Shown here in pieces: positions 13,757 to 26,196 of a stretch of DNA of 32,000 bases. The notes under the pieces were generated by a model. It ran no database searches, had not been told where the DNA came from, and saw only the letters and a list, made by a program, of their open reading frames with translations. Position 1 is the stretch's first letter. Every line of letters starts with the position of its first letter. Both the position numbers and the translations under genes were made by a program. Source of the stretch: Deinococcus radiodurans R1 = ATCC 13939 = DSM 20539 (GTDB lineage Bacteria; Deinococcota; Deinococci; Deinococcales; Deinococcaceae); contig NC_001264.1 in NCBI RefSeq assembly GCF_000008565.1, positions 373,338 to 405,337 of the forward strand. Reading direction: 5' to 3'.

Positions 13757-14116
13757 ATGGCAAAGATTCTGATCATCGACGATTCCCCCGCCGACATCCG
13801 TTTCATGACCGAGGCGCTCCGGCCGACCGGACACGCGGTCGTGAGCATCAGCGATCCGCTGGAAGCAGAGGCGATCGTCGAGCGCGAGCGGCCCGATCTG
13901 GCGCTGCTCGACGTGGTGATGCCGCAGCGCAACGGGTACGAAACCCTGCGCGCACTCAAGAAGTTGCCGGCGGCGGCGGGCCTCAAGATCGTGATCGTGT
14001 CGAGCAAGAGCGCCGAAACCGACGTGAAGTGGGGCATGCGTCAGGGCGCCGCCGACTACCTCGCCAAGCCCTACACCCCCGAACAGGTCGCCGCCCTCGT
14101 GGCGCGGCACATCTGA
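13757..14116 (+). CDS. Single-domain CheY-like response regulator (PilG/PilH/PixH-like position)
   Basis: Receiver signatures are KILIIDDS, DLALLDVVMPQRNG (phospho-Asp), IVIVSSKS and DYLAKPY (Lys). AAGGAG lies at 13741-13746. The 67 upstream in-frame codons of the track ORF lie in lower-GC DNA and were rejected. Confidence 0.85.
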   Translation: MAKILIIDDSPADIRFMTEALRPTGHAVVSISDPLEAEAIVERERPDLALLDVVMPQRNGYETLRALKKLPAAAGLKIVIVSSKSAETDVKWGMRQGAADYLAKPYTPEQVAALVARHI

Positions 14117-14554
14117 ATGACCGACTCGCTGCTGCTGTTCCGGGTGGGCGAGCGCGTGCTGGCGTTGCCCGCCGCCGCTGCCCGGCAGGTGCGCCCGCTC
14201 GACATTCTGTCTCCCCTGCCCGGCAGCGGCGGCGCCCTGCTGGGCCTGAGCTCCGCCGCTGGCCGCGTGGTGCCGGTGGCCGACCTGCGCGCCCTGCTCG
14301 ACTGGCCCGCCGACACCAGTGACCAGCACAAGGACCGGCGGGCGCCGCTGCTGCTGCTGCTCGACATCCAGGACCAGACGCTGGGCCTGCCCGTCGACGA
14401 CGTGATCGGGTTTACCGAAGACCCCCAGACCCCCGGTGATGAGCTGCTCTCGTCCGAAACCCTGCTGGGCAGCTTTCAGGACGGGCACCGGGGGCACCTG
14501 CTGCACCCCGAGCTGCTGCTCAGCGCCCTCACCCGGCGCCTGAGCCCGGCCTGA
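14117..14554 (+). CDS. CheW-like coupling protein (PilI/PixI-like)
   Basis: [24 protein letters not shown]...[21 protein letters not shown] is the typical CheW-domain pattern. Its ATG directly abuts the upstream TGA (TGAATG). Confidence 0.75.
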
Positions 14555-14555
14555 C

Positions 14556-14601
14556 CCGGCCCCTCCTGCTTCCGGCCCCTCCTGCTCCGGCCCCCGCCGC
14601 T
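14556..14601 (+). repeat. Three tandem copies of a C-rich 15-mer (CCGGCCCCTCCTGCT) in the cheW-MCP spacer
   Basis: Two identical copies lie at 14556-14570 and 14572-14586. A diverged third copy, CCGGCCCCCGCCGCT, lies at 14587-14601. A TTTTCCCCTTTTCCC tract follows. Confidence 0.8.
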
Positions 14602-14630
14602 TTTCCCCTTTTCCCACAGGTACGCAACCC

Positions 14631-16862
14631 ATGTCGCAACAAGCCGAACTCAACCGTCTCGAGCCTCCTTTTTCCCGTCAGAACCGCAAGTCCAGCGACC
14701 TTTCGCGCGCGCCCCAGCGTTCGGGGCTGCTGGGCCGGCTGGGTATCGGCCAGAAGCTCGGGCTGATGGCGCTGAGCCTGGGCGTGCCGGTGGTGGGCCT
14801 GGCCGCGTGGCAGGCCACCCAGCAGCTGTCGCGCATCAACCACACCGTGACGCAGCTCCACGGCCTTCAGCAGACCGAGCCGCTCGCCGCCGTGCAGTCG
14901 GGCATGTACCTCTACGTGTACGGCCTCACCCACGACGACCCACAGGAACGCGCCAAAGGGGAAAAGGAAGCCTCGCAGGGCTTTGCGACCCTGGCGCCGC
15001 TGCTGCGGGGTCGCCCGGCGCAGCAGCTCAAGGCGACGCAGCAGGACTGGCAGGCGCTGCAACTCACCGCCGATTCCGCCGACAGCCGCGCCATCCTCGG
15101 CGCCTACGAAGCCCTGAGCCGCAACAACCAGCAACTGCTGGTGGACGACATGCTCAGCGCCGCCGGACTCGACAGCGAGCAAGACCCCGCGCTCGGCTCC
15201 TTGATCATGGCCAACCAGCGCCGCATCCCCAAACTGTCGTCCGAGCTTCAGCTGGCCGCCCTGACCGCCGACATGCTCACCCTGACCCCGAACGACGCCG
15301 GGCTGCGCCAGCAACTGCTGCGCCACACCGCGATCATCAGCGACGTGCTCGACGCTTACCGGGGTGACCTGGCGCGCGCCTACTCGCTGCGCCCCGAGCT
15401 GCGGCAGACCCTTCAGGCACCCACCGACAAGATGACCCGCGCCATCGACGACAGCCTTCAGCGCGCGCAGGCCGGGCTCGACAAAGGCACCTACGGCGAC
15501 GCCCTCGCCAAGAGCTACAGCCTCAGCCTCAACAGCCTGCGCGACTCGTACATCGCCACCATCACCTCGGTCGGCCAGGAACTGCTGGGCCGCGCCAAGG
15601 GCGGGTACGTGACGCTGGCCTTGCAGTTCGGCCTGCTGCTGCTGCTGCTCGGGGCCGTCGCCGCGCTGCTGTTTGCCCTGATGCGCGCCATCACGCGGCC
15701 CCTCTCGCAGCTCACCGACGCCTCGCGCCAGCTGTCGGCAGGCGACCTGAACGTAGACGTGCCGGTCACCACTCAGGACGAACTCGCGCTGCTGAGCCGG
15801 TCGTTCAACGACGCCGCCGCCGAGCTGCGCCGCAACCAGTTGCGGGTGGACCAGGAACGCGAGGAAGCCCAGCAGATGCAAAGCAACATCGGGGAGTTCC
15901 TCGACGTGACGATGGACATCGCCGACGGCGACCTCACCCGGCGCGGCAAGGTCACCGACGACGTGCTGGGCAACGTGGTGGACTCGATCAACCTGATGGT
16001 GGGCGAACTCGCCGACACGCTGCGGGAGGTGCAGGGCGCCTCGCAGTCGGTCAACCAGGGCTCGGCGCAGATGCTCACGACCACCGCCCAGATCGGCCAG
16101 GGTTCGCAGCTCACCGCCGAGCAGTCGCGCCGCCTCGCCGAGCGGGCCGCCGAGATCAGCCTGCGGATTCAGGACCTCGCCCGCAGCGCTCAGGACAGCG
16201 CCGCCGCCGCGCAGCAGGCACTTCAGACCTCACAGCAGGGGCAGCAGGCCGTGCAGGGCACCTTGCAGGGGATGGCCGCCATCCGCGAGGGCACCCAGGA
16301 CGTGGCGCAGACGATGCAGGCGCTGAGCGAGCGCTCCGAGCAGATTCAGGGCATCGTGGACACCATCACCCAGATTTCGAGCCAGACCAACTTGCTTTCG
16401 CTGCACGCTTCCATCGAGGCGGCGGGCGCGGGTGAAGCCGGCAGCCGCTTTGCCGTGGTGGCCGACGAAGTGCGCCAGCTCGCCGAGCAGACCAACGAAG
16501 CCACCGGGCGCGTGGCCGCTCTGATCACCACGCTGCAAAGCGACATCGCGCAGGTCCGGCAGGGCGTGCAGAGCAGCGCCGCGCAGGTGGAGAAGGGCTA
16601 CCGGGTGGCCGAGGAAGCCGGGAGCCGCCTGCAAGAACTCGGAGACATCGCGCAGCGGTCTGCGCAGCTCGCCGGGCAGATGTCGGACGTGTCGGGCGCC
16701 CAGGCGCGGGACATCGAGCAGCTCGGGCAGGGCGTGCAGGACATCGCCGCGCTTGCCGAGGGCGCCCAGCAGTCGGTGCAGCGGGGTCGCGGCGCCGCCG
16801 AGCAGCTGCGCGCCCTGGCGACCCAGCTCGATCAGAGCCTCAGCCGTTTCCGCTTGGGCTGA
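14631..16862 (+). CDS. Methyl-accepting chemotaxis protein 1 (two TM segments, HAMP, MCP signalling domain)
   Basis: TM1 is [19 protein letters not shown] periplasmic region of about 290 aa follows, then TM2 [17 protein letters not shown]. The HAMP is [38 protein letters not shown]. The signalling hairpin tip is [35 protein letters not shown]. Confidence 0.85.
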
Positions 16863-16939
16863 ACTTCCCATTCCAGCCTGAGCTGAGCCGCCTGATCCTT
16901 CTCTCCCTTCTTTTTTCTCCGATGTTTGCAGGAGCCGAA

Positions 16940-19210
16940 ATGCTACAGAATGTTCCCAGCACCGAACTTGCCGCGCGGCCTGCACCGGGCCGGCAGGCGG
17001 CTTCCGGTCCTTCCCTTCCCCGCGCGCCCCGCTGGATCGACCGCCTGAGTGTGGCCCAGAAACTGGGGCTGGCCGGCGCTTTGTTTTTCGTGCCGTTGGT
17101 GGTCAACGTGACCGCCGCCGCCTCCACCCTGATGCGCATCGTGCAGCCGGTCGCCGGGGCCGAGCAGATCATGCCGTTCGTCAACGCGACCACCGACTTG
17201 CAGCGCGCCCTCGACGACCTGACGCTCGCAGCGAGCGCCCAGACGAGCCCCGCCGCGGCCCGGCAACGGGCCGAGCAGGCCCTGACGCAGCTCGGCGCTC
17301 TGCTCGACTCCGAGGCCTCGACCAACCCCATCAGCCCCCTGCCCGAGATCCGGCGGGAACTGCGCCAAACGCTGCAGTTCGCCAACTTCAGGGCGCAGGT
17401 GGAGCGTTACCTCGCCCTGCCCCCCAGCGGGGACCGGGTGAGCAGCTACGGCACGGTGAACAGCGCCGTGCAAAATGTGCTCAAAAACATCACGCAGGCG
17501 AGTTCGCTCGACCTCGGCGGGGGCCAGCACACCATGTACCTGTTGCAGCGCGCCGCGCTGGGTGACGGCCTGATGGGGCTGCGCAGCAACCTCGTGCAGG
17601 CCGAGCTGCTCAACGACCGCCTGCGCCGCGGCGCTCCCAACGCCAGCGCCGACCGCACCCGGCTTTCGGCGCTCGTGACCCATATGAGCACGGAGGTGGG
17701 GCAGACCCAGGAGGCGCTGAACGACGCCGTGCGGGAGCGCCCCGAACAGGCCCGGGCACTGAGCAGCGAGATGCAGCAGCTGAGCAACATGATGTCGCTG
17801 GTCCTGGGCAACCTGCGCGCCGCGGCGTCCGGCGCCGGGGGCAGCACCTCACAGGCCCTGATCGACCGCAACCTGCAGAAGATCGACCGGCTCTACGCCC
17901 AGACGAGCGCGGCCCTGTCGCAAGAAGGGAAAAACTTCCAGGACGAATACGTCCGCAAGGGGATCGTCAACGGCCTGATCACTTTGCTCATCACTGCTCT
18001 GGCGACCTGGTTGCTGGTCTACATCCTGCAGCGCATCGTGCGCCAGCTGCGGCAGCTGACCACCAACGCGCAGGCGCTCACCGACGGGAACCTCAACATT
18101 CACCTGCCGGTCACGACCTCCGACGAGCTCGGCGTCCTGACCAGCTCCTTCAACGAGGCGGCGGCGCAGTTGCGGACCAACGCCGAGCGCGTCGAGCAGG
18201 AACGTCTCGAATCCCAGCGCCTCCAAGACCACATCGGCCAGTTCCTCGACGTCACCATGGACATCGCCGAAGGTGACCTCACCAAGCGCGGCGTCGTCAC
18301 CGAGGACATCCTCGGCAACGTCGTCGATTCCATCAACCTCATGACCGACGAACTCGCCACCACCCTGCAGCAGGTTCAGGCCGCCTCCGCCTCCGTCTCC
18401 GGAGGCTCAAAGCAAATGCTCGGCACCACCGAGGCCATCCAGCAGGGCGCGCAGCTCACCGCCGCCGAGGCCCAGCGGGTGGCCGAGCAGGTCAGCCAGA
18501 TCACCGCCGGGATTCGCCAGATGGCGCACAACGCCCAGACCTCGGCGCAGACGGCGCGTGAGGCGCTGCTCGCCTCACAGCAGGGGCAAGAGGCGCTGCA
18601 AGAGACGTTGGGGGGGATGCAGAACATCCGGCGGGAAGTGCAGCAGGTGTCCAAGCGCATCAAGACATTGGGCGACCGCTCGCTCGAGATTCAGGAAATC
18701 GTCGATACCATCTCCCAGATCGCCGAACAGACCCACCTGCTTGCCGTGAACGCCTCCATCGAGGCGGCGGGCGCCGGGGAGGCCGGGGGCCGCTTCGGGA
18801 TCGTCGCGGACTCGGTGCGCAAACTGGCGAACACTTCCGCGCAGGCAACCACCCGTATTGCGGGCCTGATCAAGAGCGTGCAGGCCGAGGTGCAGGACGT
18901 GATCGTGGAGGCCGAGGAAGGCACCCGTGAGGTGGAGCAGGGCTACCGCATCGCCGGCAGCGCCGGTCAGCGTCTCCAGGACATTGGTGAGCTCACCGAG
19001 CGCTCGGCGCAGCTTGCCGAAAGCATCGCGGCCTCGACCCAGGAGCAGGTGCAGAGCGTGGAGCGGGTGAACGCGGCGGTGCAGCAGATCGCCGAAGTGG
19101 CGCAGCGTTCGGAAAGCGCGGTGCAGCAGGGGCGCACAGCGGCGCAGCAACTCGAAGACCTCGCCCGGCAACTCGACACCAGTCTCGCCCGCTTCCGTCT
19201 GCCGGGCTAA
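16940..19210 (+). CDS. Methyl-accepting chemotaxis protein 2
   Basis: The architecture is the same as MCP 1. The tip is [36 protein letters not shown] prefer the ATG at 16940 (GGAG at 16931-16934, 5-nt spacer) over the track start at 16922. Confidence 0.85.
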   Translation: MLQNVPSTELAARPAPGRQAASGPSLPRAPRWIDRLSVAQKLGLAGALFFVPLVVNVTAAASTLMRIVQPVAGAEQIMPFVNATTDLQRALDDLTLAASAQTSPAAARQRAEQALTQLGALLDSEASTNPISPLPEIRRELRQTLQFANFRAQVERYLALPPSGDRVSSYGTVNSAVQNVLKNITQASSLDLGGGQHTMYLLQRAALGDGLMGLRSNLVQAELLNDRLRRGAPNASADRTRLSALVTHMSTEVGQTQEALNDAVRERPEQARALSSEMQQLSNMMSLVLGNLRAAASGAGGSTSQALIDRNLQKIDRLYAQTSAALSQEGKNFQDEYVRKGIVNGLITLLITALATWLLVYILQRIVRQLRQLTTNAQALTDGNLNIHLPVTTSDELGVLTSSFNEAAAQLRTNAERVEQERLESQRLQDHIGQFLDVTMDIAEGDLTKRGVVTEDILGNVVDSINLMTDELATTLQQVQAASASVSGGSKQMLGTTEAIQQGAQLTAAEAQRVAEQVSQITAGIRQMAHNAQTSAQTAREALLASQQGQEALQETLGGMQNIRREVQQVSKRIKTLGDRSLEIQEIVDTISQIAEQTHLLAVNASIEAAGAGEAGGRFGIVADSVRKLANTSAQATTRIAGLIKSVQAEVQDVIVEAEEGTREVEQGYRIAGSAGQRLQDIGELTERSAQLAESIAASTQEQVQSVERVNAAVQQIAEVAQRSESAVQQGRTAAQQLEDLARQLDTSLARFRLPG
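18232..19203 (+). repeat. Copy A of a ~970-bp near-identical duplicated segment (C-terminal half of MCP 2)
   Basis: It aligns without indels to 20699..21670 at a constant offset of 2467 nt. Long blocks are 100 percent identical, for example the ~113-nt run starting GGGGGGATGCAGAACATCCGGCGGG. Confidence 0.9.
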
Positions 19211-19412
19211 GGCGCTCCTTTTCGCGTCTCCCCTCCTCTCCTTTCCCATACGGACTGCGCTCCATTCCAGCACAGGCAGAAAAGCGCCGCCTGCGCTTCC
19301 ATACCGCGAAACCCGTCTTTTTCCTACTCGCATCCGCTCGGATTGAATCCGAAACAACAGGATTCACTCGGAATCCGTATCCCTTATTTCCGACCCTGCC
19401 AGGAGGCTGCCC

Positions 19413-21689
19413 ATGACCTACGCTCCCGATCCCGCTGCCGCGCATCCGGCGGCCCCCGCACGGCGCGATCAGCCGTCTCCCTCCTCACGTTCCCCGCGCG
19501 CCGGTTTTCTCAGCCGCCTCAGCGTGGGCCAGAAGCTGCTGCTCAGCAGCCTGACCCTGGGCCTGCCGCTGCTCGGCACCGGCCTGGCGCTCGCCAACGG
19601 CGCCCGGCAACAACAGCAACTCGCCGTGCGGGCCGCCGAAACGACCCAGTACTACGACCAGTTGCTGAAAGTGCAGCGCGACCTGACCGCCCTGCGCGCA
19701 GCGAGCAATGTCCGGCCCAGCCCCGCCGTCTTGAATGAACTCGAACAGGCCGCGAACGGGCTGGCTGCGGCCCCCACCCTGACCCCGGAAAGCCGGACGG
19801 TCGCCACCGCCGTCGGTCAGCAGGTCATGTCGGTGGCCGAGCAGCTGCGCGAGCACAGGCTCAACCCGGCCCAGCTCGACCACCTGACGACCAACATTCT
19901 GTCCGGTGACCTGCGCGACCTGTTTCGTCGGCCCGCCCGCGACGGGGGGCTGCTGACCGGCGGGTCCTTCGAGTCGCAGGCGCTCGCCACCATGATTTCC
20001 GTACGCTTGCCCAGCGACTTTTTGAACCTCAACACGACGACGGGCGACCTGTCGCGCTTGCTGACCCAGGAGCGCGCCGCCCAGGGCAAAACCCTCAGCG
20101 CGGAGCAGCGACTTCAGGCCCAGCGGCTGCTGCTGCAAGGACAAAGCGAAAGCGGGGTGCTGGAGCGCGATATCGAGGAACTGTTCAGCAACGTGCCCCA
20201 GGCCGGCGTTGACCTGAGTCCGGCCCTGACTGCGGCCCTCAACACTTCCCGGCAGATGCTCGCCGCCGCCGAAGCGCAGCTGGGCCAGCCCCTTACCCCC
20301 CAGACGGTCAACACGCTGCGCCGCGCCGACGAAGCCCAGGTGGAGGCCCAGTACGCCGCGCTCCGGGCCATCAACGACAGCATGAGCCAGAGCTTCGGGC
20401 AGCTGCAACAGCAGGCCACCCGGCGCCTCGCCCTGCTGCTCGGCGGCCTGGCGCTGCTGCTCGCGCTGGTGCTGCTCGTCAACCGCGCCCTGCTGCGCTC
20501 GATTCTGCGCCCGCTGGAACAGCTTACCTCGGCGTCCAAGCAGCTCGCCAGCGGCAACCTCGCCGTCAAGCTGCCGGTGACCTCCAACGACGAGTTCGGC
20601 ACCCTGGCGACGAGCTTCAACGAAGCCGCCACCCAGCTGCGCGCCAGCGCCGAGCGCACTGAGCAGGAGCGCGTGGAAGCCCAGCGGCTCCAGAACAACA
20701 TCGGTCAGTTCCTCGACGTCACCATGGACATCGCTGAAGGCGACCTCACCAAGCGCGGCGTCGTCACCGAGGACATCCTCGGCAACGTCGTCGACTCCAT
20801 CAACCTCATGACCGACGAACTCGCCGCCACCTTGCAGCAGGTTCAGGCCGCGTCCGCCTCCGTGTCCGGAGGCTCAAAGCAAATGCTCGGCACCACCGAA
20901 GCCATTCAGCAGGGCGCGCAGCTCACCGCCGCCGAGGCCCAGCGGGTGGCCGAGCAGGTCAGCCAGATCACCGCGACCATCCGTCAGATGGCGCAGAACG
21001 CCCAGACTTCTGCCCAGACGGCGCGTGAAGCGCTGCTCGCCTCGCAGCAGGGGCAAGAAGCGCTTCAGGAAACGCTGGGGGGGATGCAGAACATCCGGCG
21101 GGAAGTGCAGCAGGTGTCCAAGCGCATCAAGACATTGGGCGACCGCTCGCTCGAGATTCAGGAAATCGTCGATACCATCTCCCAGATCGCGCGGCGCACC
21201 AACCTGCTGGCGCTCAACGCCTCGGTGGAAGCGGCGGGCGCGGGCGACGCGGGCGGACGCTTCGGCGCCGTGGCCGATGAAATTCGTCAGCTCGCCACGA
21301 CCTCAGCGCAGGCGACGACGCGCATCGCGGGGCTGATCAAGAGCGTGCAGGCCGAAGTGCAGGACGTGATCGTGGAAGCCGAAGAAGGCACCCGCGAAGT
21401 GGAGCAGGGCTACCGCATCGCCGGCAGCGCCGGGCAACGCCTACAGGACATCGGTGAACTGACGGAGCGCTCGGCGCAGCTCGCTGAAAGCATCGCGGCC
21501 TCGACCCAGGAGCAGGTGCAGAGCGTGGAGCGGGTGAACGCGGCGGTGCAGCAGATCGCCGAAGTGGCGCAGCGCTCGGAAAGCGCGGTGCAGCAAGGAC
21601 GCAGCACGGCGCAGCAGCTCGAAGACCTCGCCCGTCAACTCGACACCAGCCTCGCCCGCTTCCGCCTGCCAGAGCCGGGCAGCGCGTAA
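19413..21689 (+). CDS. Methyl-accepting chemotaxis protein 3
   Basis: AGGAGG lies at 19401-19406, 6 nt before the ATG. The protein has two TM segments, a HAMP ([38 protein letters not shown]) and the tip [35 protein letters not shown]. Confidence 0.88.
20699..21670 (+). repeat. Copy B of the duplicated MCP C-terminal segment
   Basis: See copy A. By eye, identity outside a ~125-nt central patch is well above 90 percent. Confidence 0.9.
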
Positions 21690-21719
21690 GAAGCCTGCAA
21701 CGAACAGAAAGGTAGCGTG

Positions 21720-22760
21720 ATGGTTATGGCCCACAGCGAACTGCTTGAGAGCTTTAGAGAGGAGGCCGCCGAGGTCCTGAGCGGCCTGGAAGAGGGGGTC
21801 ACCGGCCTGCGGACGCTGAGCGGGGCCGCCGGACACGCCCACGACACGCCGGAACTCGCCGCCCACCTGGGCGACCTGAGTGTGCTCGCCCACCGCCTGC
21901 GCGGGAGCGCCGCCCTGTACGGCTACGCGCAGCTCTCCACCCTGGCCTCGCTGCAAGAGCGGCTGCTCGACGCCCGCCCGCAACTCGACCGCGAGCAGCA
22001 CCAGGAATTCCTGACCCTGCTCGAACAGGTCAACGCGGCGCTGCGCCAGGGCCTGAGCCGCTTGCAGGCCGGGGGCGACGACCACGACCTGGGGCTGCTC
22101 TTCGCCCGCTCGGGCGGGGCCACCACGTTGCAGCGTCTCCTCCAGCAGCGGCCCGACGCCTTCCAGATTCGGGCCTCGCGGCTGCACCATGCGCCGCCCA
22201 GTGATACTCCTTCCGAAACTGCTGAAGACGCCCCGGCGCCCCTCACGGTGGCCCAGGAAGTGCAGGCCTTCGTGCGCGACAACGCCGAGGTCTGGGAGTA
22301 CTTCGCGCCCGAAGTGCACGAGCACCTCGCCAGCCTGCGCGAACAGCTCGGGCGCGGCGAGGACGCCGACCTCCAGGTGATGTTCCGCGCCGCCCACACC
22401 ATCAAGGGCAGTGCGTACATGGTGGGCTTGCCGCCGCTGGGCGACTTCGCGCACGGTATGGAAGACCTGCTGGGCGCCGCCCGCGAGGGAGCGGTCAGCC
22501 TGAGCAGCGACGTGCGCGGCCTGCTCGCCGAGGCCACCGACACCATCGGCGACCTGCTGACGGTGGCCGCTGGCGCCGATGGCGCGGCGCTCCCCGCGCA
22601 ACTCACCGCCGTCACCGCGCGGTGCGCTCGGCCCACAGCGGTGAGCAGACCCCGGTGCCGCCCATGTCGGCGGCGGCTCCGGTTGTGGCTCCTGTCCCGG
22701 CCCCTGCTCCCGCCGCCGCGACCAGCATCCGTGTGCCGGCGGCGCGCCTCGAAGGGCTGA
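21720..22760 (+). CDS. cheA: CheA-like histidine kinase, N-terminal part with two Hpt domains (reading frame breaks near 22600-22660)
   Basis: The Hpt 1 signature is LSVLAHRLRGSAALYGY and the Hpt 2 signature is FRAAHTIKGSAYMVGLPPL. After ...PAQLTAVTAR the frame-0 translation turns into Arg/Cys/Pro-rich junk (CARPTAVSRPRCRPCRRRLRLW), while the +2 frame continues with a typical CheA linker. Confidence 0.7.
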   Translation: MVMAHSELLESFREEAAEVLSGLEEGVTGLRTLSGAAGHAHDTPELAAHLGDLSVLAHRLRGSAALYGYAQLSTLASLQERLLDARPQLDREQHQEFLTLLEQVNAALRQGLSRLQAGGDDHDLGLLFARSGGATTLQRLLQQRPDAFQIRASRLHHAPPSDTPSETAEDAPAPLTVAQEVQAFVRDNAEVWEYFAPEVHEHLASLREQLGRGEDADLQVMFRAAHTIKGSAYMVGLPPLGDFAHGMEDLLGAAREGAVSLSSDVRGLLAEATDTIGDLLTVAAGADGAALPAQLTAVTARCARPTAVSRPRCRPCRRRLRLWLLSRPLLPPPRPASVCRRRASKG

Positions 22761-24559
22761 TGGACCAGCTCGGCGAACTCGTGACCGCCCGCGCCCGCAT
22801 GACGCAGCTCCTGTCACGTCTCGACGAGTTGCAGGGCAGCATGACCGCCAGCCAGGAGCGGTTTCAGCGCACCGTGCGTGACTTCGAGGAGCGTTACCTC
22901 AACCCCGACATGGTGCGCGAGGAAGGCGCGGCCCCCACGACCCGCATGGGCGGCCTTGACCTTTCTCAGCAGTTCGCCGAGCTCGAATTCGACACCTACA
23001 ACGACCTGAACATCCTTTCGCGCTCGATTACCGAGCTGTCCGCCGACTTCGCCGAAGTGCGCCGGCGCCTGAGCGACACCGCGGCCGAGCTGTCCGAGGA
23101 AAACGAGCAGCTCGGCAAACTCGTGCGCCGCCTGCGCCTCGACGTGAACCAGACCAGCCGCGTGGCCTTCTCGCAAACGACCGCCCGCCTGCGGCGCTGG
23201 GCGCGCGAGCAGCAGGCCGACCTGACCCTGCAAGTCGAGGGCGAGGACGTGCTGATCGAAAGCGGCATCCTGCAACGTATCAGCGACCCGCTGCTGCACC
23301 TGCTGACCAACGCCGCGTACCACGGGCTGGCGAGCGAAAGCGCCGAAAGCCGCCGCGCCGCCGGCAAAAACCCCCAGGGCACCGTCTGGATTCGCGCCGC
23401 CGAACAGGGCAACTTTCTGGAAGTCACGGTGGCCGACGACGGGCAGGGCCTGGACTACGCCCGCATCCGCGAGCGGGCGCTGGAGCGCGGGCTGCGTTCG
23501 GCGCAGGAACTCGAACAGCTCAGCAGCGACGAACTCGGGCGCCTGATTCTTCTTCCCGGCTTTTCCACCGCCCGCGAGGTCGGCAACGTGGCCGGGCGTG
23601 GGGTGGGGCTGGACGTGGTCGCCACGGCGGTTCGTCAGCTCGGCGGCGAGCTGCTGATCAGCTCCGAGCGCGGCGTAGGCACAGCGTTTACCCTGCGTGT
23701 GCCGACCACGCAGCGCATCATGGACGTGCTGCACCTCGACCTGGGGGCTGGCCACCACGCCGCCCTGCCGGTGGGCAGCGTCCGCTCGCTGCGCGACGTG
23801 CCGCTCGGCGACCTGCGCCGCGACGACGGGCAACTGTGGCTCGACTTCGGCGGCCAGCCGGTGCCGGTGGTGGACGCCCGGCCCATCTGGGGGCACGCGC
23901 CGCAGGATACGGACACCGAAGCGCACCTCGCCGTGGTGTCGAGCATTTCCGGCCTGCTCGCCCTGCGCGTGCACGACTTCGGGGACATCGAAGAAGTCGC
24001 CGTGACCGCGCCCAGCGGCCTGCTCGCGCCGCTCGACTACCTCGCGGGGATGGCGGTGTCGGGGACCGGACAGGTGCTGGCGATTCTCGACCCGGCGGGC
24101 GTGCTGCGCCTGAGCCGCCGCCCCGCCACCTGGCTGGGTCAGGCCCAGCGGCAAGTCCAGGCGACTGGCAACCAACGTTTGCTGCTGGTGGACGACTCGC
24201 TGAGCGTGCGCCGGCTGGTGGGCCGCATGCTCGAACGCGGCGGTTATCAGGTGGTCACGGCGAGCGACGGCCAGGAAGCGCTCGACCTGCTGCAACAGGA
24301 CGCCGACTTCGGCGCGGTGGTCACCGACCTCGAAATGCCGCGCGTCAACGGCTACGAACTGCTCTCCGCCGTCCGCGCCCGCCCTGCCACCGCCGGGCTT
24401 CCCATGCTGGTCATGACCACCCGCGCCGGGGAAAAACACCAGCGGCTGGCCTTCCAGCTCGGCGCCGACGACTACTTCACCAAGCCGGTCAACGAGGCGC
24501 TGCTGCTGCGCCGCCTGGGCACCTTGCAGCAGGCGCAGCAGGCCGGGGTGAGCGCGTGA
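22622..24559 (+). CDS. cheA: CheA-like histidine kinase, C-terminal part: dimerisation, HATPase, CheW-like and C-terminal receiver domains (ChpA/PixL-like hybrid)
   Basis: After a Pro/Ala linker comes IRVPAARLEGLMDQLGELV (dimerisation). The N box is LLHLLTNAAYHG, G1 is VADDGQGLD and G2 is GRGVGLDVV. A CheW-like domain follows (MDVLHLDLGAGHHAALPVGSV). The REC domain shows RLLLVDDS, AVVTDLEMPRVNG, LVMTTRA and DYFTKP. No SD precedes either GTG 22622 or ATG 22664. Confidence 0.8.
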   Translation: MRSAHSGEQTPVPPMSAAAPVVAPVPAPAPAAATSIRVPAARLEGLMDQLGELVTARARMTQLLSRLDELQGSMTASQERFQRTVRDFEERYLNPDMVREEGAAPTTRMGGLDLSQQFAELEFDTYNDLNILSRSITELSADFAEVRRRLSDTAAELSEENEQLGKLVRRLRLDVNQTSRVAFSQTTARLRRWAREQQADLTLQVEGEDVLIESGILQRISDPLLHLLTNAAYHGLASESAESRRAAGKNPQGTVWIRAAEQGNFLEVTVADDGQGLDYARIRERALERGLRSAQELEQLSSDELGRLILLPGFSTAREVGNVAGRGVGLDVVATAVRQLGGELLISSERGVGTAFTLRVPTTQRIMDVLHLDLGAGHHAALPVGSVRSLRDVPLGDLRRDDGQLWLDFGGQPVPVVDARPIWGHAPQDTDTEAHLAVVSSISGLLALRVHDFGDIEEVAVTAPSGLLAPLDYLAGMAVSGTGQVLAILDPAGVLRLSRRPATWLGQAQRQVQATGNQRLLLVDDSLSVRRLVGRMLERGGYQVVTASDGQEALDLLQQDADFGAVVTDLEMPRVNGYELLSAVRARPATAGLPMLVMTTRAGEKHQRLAFQLGADDYFTKPVNEALLLRRLGTLQQAQQAGVSA

Positions 24560-25347
24560 CCGCCGTCCCCCGTTCTCCGGCCCGGCCCGAACTCGTGTCC
24601 GCCCTGCCGATTCTGACCATCCTCAACGACCCCGACCGGGCGGCGATGTACCGCCACCTCGCCGGGCAGGCGGGGGTGCCGACCATCGAGGCGGAGGGGG
24701 CGCTGCACGCCCTGACGCAGCTCGAGCGTATGCCGGTGGCGGCCATCATCTGCGACGCCCAGATGGAAGACATGAGCGGCGAGGACTTCCGCGAAGTGGT
24801 CACCGCCGAGGAAAGCACCCACGACGTGCCGGTGTACGTGCTGCCGCAGTTGCCGGAAGCTGGAAATGGGGACGCCGGGGCGCTGCCCACCAGCCCGCAG
24901 GTGCTCGGCGAAGTGCTGACCGAACTGGGCCTTTCACCCGCTCAGCTCCCGGTGCCGCTGCGGACAGGCGCCCCGGCGCACCTGCACGGCGACCTCTCGC
25001 AGTTCAGCCTGCCCGAATTCCTGAACTGGGTGGCCGAAATGCGCTTTTCCGGGCACTGGCTGGTCACGGTCAGCAGCCGTCAGGGCGCCGCGCAGCCGCT
25101 GGCCGGACATCTGGTGATGCGCGGGGGCGACCTCGTGTACGCCGAGTGCGGCGGGCACAGTGGCAAGGCCGCCGTCTTCACGTTGCTCCAGGCCATCGAG
25201 GAATACCGCGACGCCATCTTTCACTTCTACCTCGCCGAGGCGCCGGACGACGTGCGCTCGCCCGACCTGCACGCGGCCACGCCCCGGCTGCTGATCGAAC
25301 TGGCGGTGGACCTCGACCACCACGCCGCCGGGCACAGCCTGCACTGA
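24556..25347 (+). CDS. Degenerate receiver-like domain fused to a DUF4388 (PATAN-like) domain
   Basis: The GTG at 24556 overlaps the cheA stop (GTGA). The N-terminal half resembles REC (ILTILND, AAIICDAQMEDMSG) but lacks the usual Thr/Ser and Lys positions. The C-terminal half, LHGDLSQFSLPEFLNWVAEMRFSGHWLVTV...GHLVMRGGDLVYAECGGHSGKAAVFTLLQ, fits the DUF4388 pattern. The longer track ORF from 23836 overlaps cheA and was rejected. Confidence 0.6.
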   Translation: MTAVPRSPARPELVSALPILTILNDPDRAAMYRHLAGQAGVPTIEAEGALHALTQLERMPVAAIICDAQMEDMSGEDFREVVTAEESTHDVPVYVLPQLPEAGNGDAGALPTSPQVLGEVLTELGLSPAQLPVPLRTGAPAHLHGDLSQFSLPEFLNWVAEMRFSGHWLVTVSSRQGAAQPLAGHLVMRGGDLVYAECGGHSGKAAVFTLLQAIEEYRDAIFHFYLAEAPDDVRSPDLHAATPRLLIELAVDLDHHAAGHSLH

Positions 25348-25434
25348 TTGTGTCGCCCGTACGGCGCCTGTTTTTCCACTGAAGCTGCTTTCCCGCCTTC
25401 TTGACGTTTTCTCTTCCGACTGGAGCCCTTTTTC

Positions 25435-26196
25435 ATGCCTGACATCCTCATCGTCGACGACAGCATCAGCGTGCGTAAAGCGCTGGAAATCACCCTTCGC
25501 AACCACAACGTCTCCAGCGCCAGCGCCGTGAGCGCCGAGCAGGCCCTCGAGCGCCTCGCCGAAGACCCCGGCGCCTTCGACCTGCTGATGATCGACGTGA
25601 TCATGCCCGGCAAAAGCGGCGTGGAGCTGTGCGAGGAACTCAAGGCCGACCCGCGCTACGCCGCGCTGCCCGTCATCCTGATGAGCGGCAACGTGGACGA
25701 CGAGGTCAAGGAACAGGCGCAGCAGGTCGGCGCCGAGGGCCTGCTGAAAAAGCCTTTCCGCTCCGAGGAACTCATTCCCCTCGTTCAGAGCACCCTCGAA
25801 GACGCGCGGGAACGCCGCCAGCACGCGGCAGACGCGGTGCAGCCCCCGGCACCCGCCACCGAACAACCGGCAGCCGAGAAGATGGACGACGCGGCGCTCA
25901 CCGCGCTCTCGGACCTGCTCCAGACCTACGAGGACCACCCCCGCGTGCGCGACGTGGTGATGCTCGACCGCCAGGGCCAGCCGCTGCGTCAGACCGGCAA
26001 CGTGCTGCCCGAGAACATCCAGCTGTTCGCCCGTTTCTTCACCAACACGGCGGGTGTGCTGGGCAAGCAGATGCTCGGCGAGGACATTCAGGACGTGACC
26101 ATCCGCTACGGCGGGCACGAGATGGTGATTCACAACCTGCCCGAGCACTTCGTGGTGGTGCTGATGGGCGAGGGGCAGCCCAGCCTGCAAGCCTGA
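25435..26196 (+). CDS. Response regulator receiver fused to a C-terminal Roadblock/LC7 (MglB-like) domain
   Basis: The REC domain is canonical: ILIVDDS, LLMIDVIMPGKSG, VILMSGN and LLKKPF. After a Pro/Ala linker the segment LTALSDLLQTYEDHPRVRDVVMLDRQGQPLRQTGNVLPENIQLFARFFTNTAGVLGKQMLGEDIQDVTIRYGGHEMVIHNLPEHFVVVLMGEG has the Roadblock/LC7 pattern. The Roadblock assignment is by eye. Confidence 0.6.
   Translation: MPDILIVDDSISVRKALEITLRNHNVSSASAVSAEQALERLAEDPGAFDLLMIDVIMPGKSGVELCEELKADPRYAALPVILMSGNVDDEVKEQAQQVGAEGLLKKPFRSEELIPLVQSTLEDARERRQHAADAVQPPAPATEQPAAEKMDDAALTALSDLLQTYEDHPRVRDVVMLDRQGQPLRQTGNVLPENIQLFARFFTNTAGVLGKQMLGEDIQDVTIRYGGHEMVIHNLPEHFVVVLMGEGQPSLQA

Follow-up and report, generated by a model that had tools for sequence, protein, structure and literature searches.

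A receiver-Roadblock response regulator closes the chemosensory gene cluster of Deinococcus radiodurans and may act as an adaptor between signaling and cell polarity

To what machinery does a chemosensory pathway report when the last gene of its cluster encodes a response regulator with a receiver (REC) joined to a Roadblock/LC7-like domain? The question is raised by a gene of Deinococcus radiodurans R1 on the second contig of its 3.28-Mb, four-contig genome, within a 32,000-nucleotide stretch of DNA that was analyzed as a whole and is called the window here. A preliminary description of the window had suggested that phosphorylation of this receiver could gate a small-GTPase switch of the MglA/MglB kind. 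We conclude that this protein is best explained as an output response regulator serving the only chemosensory pathway of the Deinococcales; its architecture is suggestive, and some of the evidence points away from a simple analogy with MglB.

The gene lies on the plus strand at 25435..26196 and is an open reading frame of 253 aa plus stop, with GGAG 11 nt upstream of the ATG. Its N-terminus (MPDILIVDDS) aligns with the N-termini of all homologues (MPxI[LF]IVDDS), and the start codon call is therefore right. An AlphaFold2 (AF2) model of the whole protein, built from an alignment of 31 homologues, reached a pLDDT of 88 and comprises a receiver, a long extension of alpha-5 (residues 110-135), a disordered linker, and a C-terminal module with the order alpha-beta-beta-alpha-beta-beta-beta. 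The receiver (residues 4-116; 25444..25782, plus strand) was recognized by Pfam Response_reg (PF00072; E 5e-23, 81.8 bits vs a cut-off of 30.2) and modeled with a pLDDT of 95-98. In the alignment of 31 full-length homologues D8, D9, D54, K106, and P107 never vary, and at least 90% of the sequences retain S84; the predicted phospho-acceptor D54 lies within LLMIDVIMPG, with its codon at 25594-25596. Because the switch residues D8, D9, D54, and K106 are invariant and S84 is so widely kept, the receiver is predicted to be a canonical phospho-acceptor, in line with the DD pair, phospho-Asp, Ser, and Lys named in the preliminary description. The Pro/Ala/Gln linker described there is also present, at residues ~136-151 (QPPAPATEQPAAEKMD; 25840..25887, plus strand); it is disordered in the model, where pLDDT drops below 50 at residues 142-147, and its length differs by tens of residues among the homologues of the 31-sequence alignment. 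This variation in length favors a tethered output domain over rigid coupling to the receiver.

The C-terminal module (residues ~152-244; 25888..26166, plus strand) was examined by several comparisons. Pfam Robl_LC7 (PF03259) aligned to residues 160-242 (model positions 4-88 of 91) with 15.1 bits, below its gathering cut-off of 23, and the same model matched at E up to 1 in 20 of the 31 homologues when these were searched as individual sequences. Foldseek with the whole-protein model returned mainly CheY-type receivers and receiver-containing regulators among the 50 matches listed, with no Roadblock-fold protein among them, and since such receiver structures dominated, the C-terminal domain was modeled alone. 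The resulting model (pLDDT 80.7) again had the order alpha-beta-beta-alpha-beta-beta-beta, and all 50 of the best PDB matches listed by Foldseek had the Roadblock/LC7 fold (TM 0.6-0.73, probability 1.0), including dynein LC7, LAMTOR/MP1-p14, an Asgard Roadblock, a Streptomyces Roadblock/LC7 protein (3kye), and MglB. A profile of 35 C-terminal domains, aligned from the window and from loci of public genomes, matched only Roadblock proteins in the PDB (10 of 10, among them 3leq); the three best were Myxococcus xanthus MglB, with a best E of 9e-5 over the full domain. Comparison by hhalign with four Deinococcota MglB sequences gave a probability of 87.5% and an E of 3.6e-6 over 119 columns. The Roadblock/LC7 module claimed from the letters of the window is thus borne out by profile, AF2 model, Foldseek, and hhalign, the structural and HMM comparisons agreeing on the Roadblock fold, and as a matter of predicted structure and profile similarity the assignment is confirmed, though the Pfam threshold was missed.

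Conservation within this domain is uneven. Its best-conserved elements are alpha-2 and beta-3, which in MglB supply the interface for dimerization and the two-helix face that binds the GTPase (PMC3199381), and their conservation is consistent with a Roadblock dimer. An extra C-terminal helix that aligns with alpha-3 of MglB is present in the copies outside the genus Deinococcus and has been lost from the fused domain within the genus.

The gene closes a run of same-strand genes arranged as CheY-CheW-three MCPs-CheA-(REC-PATAN)-REC-Roadblock. All features of the cluster lie on the plus strand, and its front (13757..21689), supported by Pfam, translation, and synteny in ~30 loci, consists of CheY (13757-14116), CheW (14117-about 14554), and three MCPs (14631-16862, 16922-19210, and 19413-21689). 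A CheA-type kinase in two frames follows (21717..24559; Pfam), with an Hpt part at 21717-22760 and a dimerization/ATPase/CheW/REC part at 22622-24559, and then a gene for a degenerate REC and a DUF4388/PATAN domain (24556..25347; Pfam DUF4388 E 3.7e-8, REC E 3e-4), which is found directly upstream of the REC-Roadblock gene in most related loci. The earlier description of the regulator as the last gene of the operon is true of the gene order; an 87-nt gap precedes it, holding a weak hairpin and a T-run that are not beyond chance. CheA is the sole H-kinase_dim match in the genome, which also has no CheR; the cluster is its sole chemosensory pathway. In this genome cheA is split, its Hpt part and its kinase core standing in different frames, whereas 12 of 13 relatives have both in a single frame; the pathway may therefore be impaired in this strain.

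By domain content, not phylogeny, the predicted pathway resembles type IV pilus (Pil-Chp/Tax-like) systems: it has a CheA with Hpt and a C-terminal REC, CheW, MCPs, CheY, and PATAN, without CheR. Cyanobacterial Tax systems share CheY, CheW, an MCP, a hybrid CheA with a C-terminal REC, a PATAN regulator, and the lack of CheR/CheB, and their PATAN-REC proteins PixG and PilG are output regulators that set type IV pilus polarity by phosphorylation (PMC11181946). They differ in having no Roadblock regulator; in Deinococcus, by contrast, the receiver of the PATAN protein is degenerate and the Roadblock domain sits on another receiver, which is canonical.

Full-length REC-Roadblock homologues, 33-98% identical, occur in Deinococcus and the wider Deinococcales and are limited to the Deinococcota. 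Some 30 loci, drawn from Deinococcus, a Meiothermus MAG, Trueperaceae, and further MAGs of the Deinococcales, retain the order CheY-CheW-MCP(s)-CheA-(REC-PATAN)-REC-Roadblock, while in one MAG group the REC-Roadblock gene lies outside the che cluster, yet convergent with a stand-alone PATAN gene. In a phylum-wide scan many genomes of Deinococcus and of the Meiothermus-like and Trueperaceae-like groups matched strongly, and the Thermus-like genus gave only a weaker match, to a stand-alone Roadblock protein. Thermus has been published as lacking che genes, and the want of a strong REC-Roadblock match in the Thermus-like genus fits that report (PMC12393216).

Beyond the phylum, searching 1.84 billion representatives with the C-terminal domain profile returned 231 cluster representatives, in at least 74 of which a receiver precedes the Roadblock domain. 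Several of the matches are REC-PATAN-Roadblock triple fusions, among them proteins from a Deltaproteobacteria MAG (MBI4772668.1) and a Nitrospirota MAG (RME67523.1). REC-Roadblock and REC-PATAN-Roadblock proteins retrieved in this way score 26-52 bits on Robl_LC7, over the cut-off of 23, and in most of the triple fusions both PATAN and Roadblock exceed their Pfam cut-offs (Robl_LC7 31-52 bits). These fusions hold the same three domains as the Deinococcus gene pair, with a Roadblock domain retrieved by the same profile; they differ in being one chain instead of two genes and in having PAS histidine kinases for neighbors instead of che genes. Small Cys-rich ORFs also adjoin them; those that follow the fusions are not GTPases and are mutually unrelated by BLAST, and neither a GTPase nor che genes were found in the triple-fusion neighborhoods. 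By the Rosetta-stone argument, the triple fusions indicate that the PATAN and Roadblock genes of the Deinococcus operon are functionally linked.

Some of this has precedent. Roadblock-related outputs on receivers are already known from the Thaumarchaeota, where REC-NitrOD3 is such a protein (PMC5847659), and annotation pipelines recognize both domains, one JGI homologue being auto-annotated as 'CheY-like chemotaxis protein/predicted regulator of Ras-like GTPase activity'. In the actinobacterial conservons the Roadblock protein CvnB has a histidine kinase and a GTPase of the MglA family as its working partners (PMC4316618), and two of the structures retrieved here can be set beside it, the profile match 3leq and the fold match 3kye (Roadblock/LC7 protein of Streptomyces avermitilis). 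Both precedents belong to other lineages and lack a che operon, and in CvnB the Roadblock domain has no receiver attached. Our literature search found no description of a bacterial receiver-Roadblock regulator, of its place in a che operon, or of its pairing with PATAN.

The comparison that matters most for function is with MglB, the Roadblock-fold GAP of the Ras-like GTPase MglA in M. xanthus and Thermus thermophilus. The two share the fold, the order of secondary structure, and the alpha-2/beta-3 elements, and MglA and MglB are encoded in the same genome as the fusion: chromosome I carries a canonical mglB-mglA operon, its MglB scoring 269 bits on the NCBIfam equivalog NF052242 (membership threshold 200 bits) and its MglA being a 196-aa protein with an LYTVPGQ motif. 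They differ in that the Deinococcus domain is fused to a receiver, is ~13% identical to MglB, and lies away from mglA; within the genus it also lacks alpha-3 and the C-terminal tail, and the alanine patch that contacts MglA appears not to be kept. A genome-wide scan with NF052242 matched the true MglB and four other Roadblock proteins, with no match to the REC-Roadblock gene at E up to 1. On the genome's own proteome our domain profile gave MglB 15 bits, while a stand-alone Roadblock protein of 116 aa in Thermus-like and Meiothermus-like genomes reached 45 and 43 bits. The gene for the latter is the third of a tandem Roadblock triple that D. radiodurans also possesses, and beside which no small-GTPase gene was recognized by ORF listing and P-loop motif.

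The MglA-binding surface tells a similar story at the level of residues. The MglB patch that touches MglA is A68/A72 in T. thermophilus and A64/G68 in M. xanthus, on alpha-2, and an A68/72R double mutant binds MglA ~10-fold less well (PMC3199381). The equivalent positions of the fused domain are R200/N204 by hhalign or N204/V208 by the PDB profile, two registers one helical turn apart, with small hydrophobic residues preserved by neither pair, and in the hhalign register R200 stands at the site of the A68R substitution. This alignment-based lack of conservation leans against an MglA interface of the MglB type, and by sequence comparison the fused domain is not an MglB orthologue. The MglB-likeness proposed at the outset hence survives in part: the Roadblock fold and MglB as best solved relative stand, kinship with the MglB equivalog does not, and the alanine patch leans against it.

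That the window holds no MglA-like GTPase, as had been noted from its letters, was upheld by tblastn. Queries with MglA, MglB, a second small GTPase, and the Roadblock protein of that GTPase found nothing in the window or in 41 related loci (within 10 kb; 669 kb of flanks). The genome at large does encode small GTPases, and the objection that their absence would have raised to the proposed GTPase link falls away. MglA itself was missed by a Pfam Ras scan and was reached through the NCBIfam MglB model and its neighbor gene; the second, a 184-aa MglA-family-like protein (PF03029), adjoins another Roadblock gene. MglA turned up in 239 of the 251 Deinococcota genomes searched, D. radiodurans among them, and is so nearly universal that its co-occurrence with the fusion is uninformative; we dropped it as evidence of partnership. 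The second GTPase was rejected as a specific partner: it turns up in Thermus-like genomes lacking the fusion, and a search of three fusion-bearing genomes did not find it. A 211-aa ORF upstream of this GTPase was considered as a PATAN candidate, in which case the locus would have been a PATAN-GTPase-Roadblock counterpart of the window operon; Pfam, a PF14332 scan of the genome, BLASTP, and a custom PATAN HMM gave this no support.

We tentatively favor, as a reading that is quite possible though short of probable, a Roadblock adaptor, switched by phosphorylation, that biases type IV pilus activity or polarity jointly with the PATAN protein, possibly via MglA/MglB. The CheA-type kinase would phosphorylate D54, and the Roadblock domain would dimerize through alpha-2 and beta-3, as Roadblock proteins all do, with its two-helix face serving as a docking platform. 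Phosphorylation would then alter the binding partner or the location of this platform, either by relieving occlusion by REC or through REC-REC contacts, and the regulator, paired with the neighboring PATAN protein, would bias the activity or polarity of type IV pili. The likeliest target is the MglA/MglB polarity module, carried by nearly every genome of the phylum, on which the protein would act as an adaptor or modulator like MglC or RomR and not as a catalytic GAP.

The analogy draws on Myxococcus. In M. xanthus, MglC is a Roadblock paralogue that has no GAP activity and serves to bridge partners, RomR combines a receiver with a proline-rich flexible linker and a protein-binding output, and both stand between the Frz Che pathway and MglA/MglB (PMC4719450, PMC3441718, PMC10329633). 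The Deinococcus protein unites both designs in one chain; it differs in showing no sequence orthology to either, in being encoded inside the che operon, and in having its receiver fused straight to the Roadblock domain. Frz reaches MglA/MglB by way of response regulators (PMC3441718, PMC10329633), and its route to the polarity module also uses Roadblock proteins (PMC3441718, PMC4719450, PMC10329633). PATAN genes occur near mglA/mglB in genomes, and a wiring of Che signaling to polarity is consistent with this published linkage and with the conserved PATAN neighbor (PMC4316618). Phosphorylated PixG, a PATAN-REC protein, binds the pilus motor PilB1 (PMC11181946), and surface motility has been reported in D. 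radiodurans itself (PMC12393216).

Several observations count against the adaptor view: the lack of linkage to a GTPase or MglB gene, a stand-alone Roadblock protein closer than MglB (45 vs 15 bits), the missing alpha-3, alanine-patch positions occupied by N or S plus R or V, and the frame-split cheA.

Rather unlikely, in our judgment, is a mode of action independent of any GTPase, in which the Roadblock domain only dimerizes or scaffolds and the regulator, with the PATAN protein, binds PilB, PilT, PilC, or another target directly. The repeated pairing of the REC-Roadblock and PATAN genes, with fusion of their domains in other phyla, speaks for such direct binding, as do the PixG-PilB1 precedent (PMC11181946), the lack of a GTPase gene in the neighborhoods examined, and the use of Roadblock as a plain dimerization module in dynein LC7 and LAMTOR. 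Against this, small GTPases are the partners of most prokaryotic Roadblock proteins that have been characterized (PMC4316618, PMC3747258), and the conservation of the exposed alpha-2 suggests that it offers a surface to a partner in addition to dimerizing.

We hold it improbable that the protein is a phospho-gated GAP of the MglB type, in which a Roadblock dimer would bind MglA-GTP on its two-helix face and stimulate hydrolysis under the control of receiver phosphorylation. MglB is the best solved relative of the profile over its full length (E 9e-5), hhalign relates the domain to Deinococcota MglB (87.5%), MglA is present in this genome and in 239 of the 251 genomes searched, and MglB contributes no catalytic residue, so that any fitting Roadblock dimer could in principle serve (PMC3199381). 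Set against these points are the lack of an equivalog match (E up to 1) at 13% identity, polar or charged residues at the positions equivalent to A68/A72, the loss of alpha-3 in the genus Deinococcus, and a bona fide MglB that already adjoins mglA while the REC-Roadblock gene is unlinked to it. Least probable of all is a role as phosphate sink, or as partner of the stand-alone Roadblock triple in a non-pilus process, with the protein perhaps idle in this strain, where cheA is split: multi-receiver Che pathways often use one receiver as a sink, such as PixH (PMC11181946), and among stand-alone relatives the closest is encoded third in the conserved three-Roadblock operon, but a Roadblock domain kept across the order with well-conserved alpha-2/beta-3 is needless for a mere sink, and the operon already has a single-domain CheY.

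A bolder reading, which we consider doubtful, is a direct wire from the chemosensory kinase to the MglA polarity switch. Phosphorylation of D54 would cause the Roadblock domain to swap partners, for example by pairing with MglB as a heterodimer, by taking the place of MglB, or by joining the PATAN protein in the capture of MglA-GTP, and type IV pili would be re-aimed as a result of this one phosphotransfer step. If true, such a wire would pack into one protein what Myxococcus does with the multi-protein relay Frz-RomR-MglC-MglB, and this in a phylum whose pilus control lacks an explanation.

The routes by which Che pathways reach type IV pili and the polarity machinery are only partly understood: in Myxococcus the path from Frz to MglA/MglB runs through several loosely connected proteins, and in cyanobacteria PATAN regulators touch the pilus motor. 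The REC-Roadblock/PATAN pair offers a compact and genetically tractable system in which to ask whether Roadblock and PATAN proteins bind each other, whether they contact MglA/MglB or the pilus motor, and how phosphorylation controls a Roadblock platform. For Deinococcus, the pathway that ends in this regulator may account for the direction of its surface motility (PMC12393216).

Two operons encoding small GTPases lie on the minus strand of chromosome I of D. radiodurans. The first is a canonical mglB-mglA operon (864117-865377; 792-2055 in fetched locus L115), whose MglB, the Roadblock-fold GAP, scored 269 bits against NF052242, the NCBIfam equivalog model for this protein. Its partner MglA, a Ras-like GTPase of 196 aa with the motif LYTVPGQ, was missed by a Pfam Ras scan of the organism's own genome; it is present in 239 of the 251 genomes of the phylum, at 76-94% identity among the matches listed. 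The second operon (about 2177200-2179300; 428-2510 in locus L010) encodes a 211-aa ORF, a 184-aa small GTPase matching PF03029/Arf/Ras, a 125-aa Roadblock protein and a Cys-rich 154-aa ORF. Two Thermus-like genomes carry two copies each of the 184-aa GTPase, and it was not found in three genomes bearing REC-Roadblock. We dropped a PATAN assignment for the 211-aa ORF, a resemblance seen by eye and unsupported by HMMs.

Within the window, an 87-nt gap precedes the start of the REC-Roadblock gene (25435-26196, plus strand), and in it, directly 3' of the stop codon of the upstream REC-PATAN gene, sits a hairpin with a 6-bp stem followed by TGTTTTTCC (25350-25377). Chance alone predicts 0.8 sites of this hairpin type, and one was found; this candidate may or may not act in read-through attenuation before REC-Roadblock. 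Further upstream, cheA (21717-24559) changes frame near 22575-22665, so that its Hpt ORF and its kinase-core/REC ORF occupy different frames; of 13 related loci, 12 have both parts in a single open frame. The split may reflect a genuine lesion, a functional division of the gene or a fault in the assembly.

REC-Roadblock genes also occur outside any che cluster, in one group of Deinococcales MAGs (L057-L061; 10001-11615 in L061), where the gene faces a stand-alone DUF4388/PATAN gene in convergent orientation and is adjoined by an ABC transporter and Pho-type regulators. Deltaproteobacteria MAGs, Nitrospirota MAGs and metagenome contigs supplied proteins with all three domains, REC-PATAN-Roadblock (L127, 8001-9383; L128, 4884-6167; L130, 3619-4713), whose genes are adjoined by PAS histidine kinases and, in one case, by NiFe-hydrogenase genes. 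Downstream of each lies a small Cys-rich ORF, for which a Pfam search returned no match.

Of the stand-alone Roadblock genes, the third Thermaceae gene of a tandem triple is the closest relative of the REC-fused domain. The triple is conserved in Thermus, where it adjoins recR, and in D. radiodurans (2867-3919 in L112, from a Thermus-like genome; 1011004-1011982 on chromosome I, minus strand). No small-GTPase gene was recognised beside the triple when neighbours were checked by ORF listing and P-loop motif. Comparison of the C-terminal end of REC-Roadblock (window 26167-26193) with loci L047-L072 showed that every copy in the genus Deinococcus stops just past beta-5; copies from Trueperaceae, a Meiothermus MAG and other Deinococcales retain one more helix (..VRYLxxRQMPxLQQAFA), which aligns with alpha-3 of MglB. 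The shorter Roadblock domain of the genus Deinococcus is a lineage-specific truncation.
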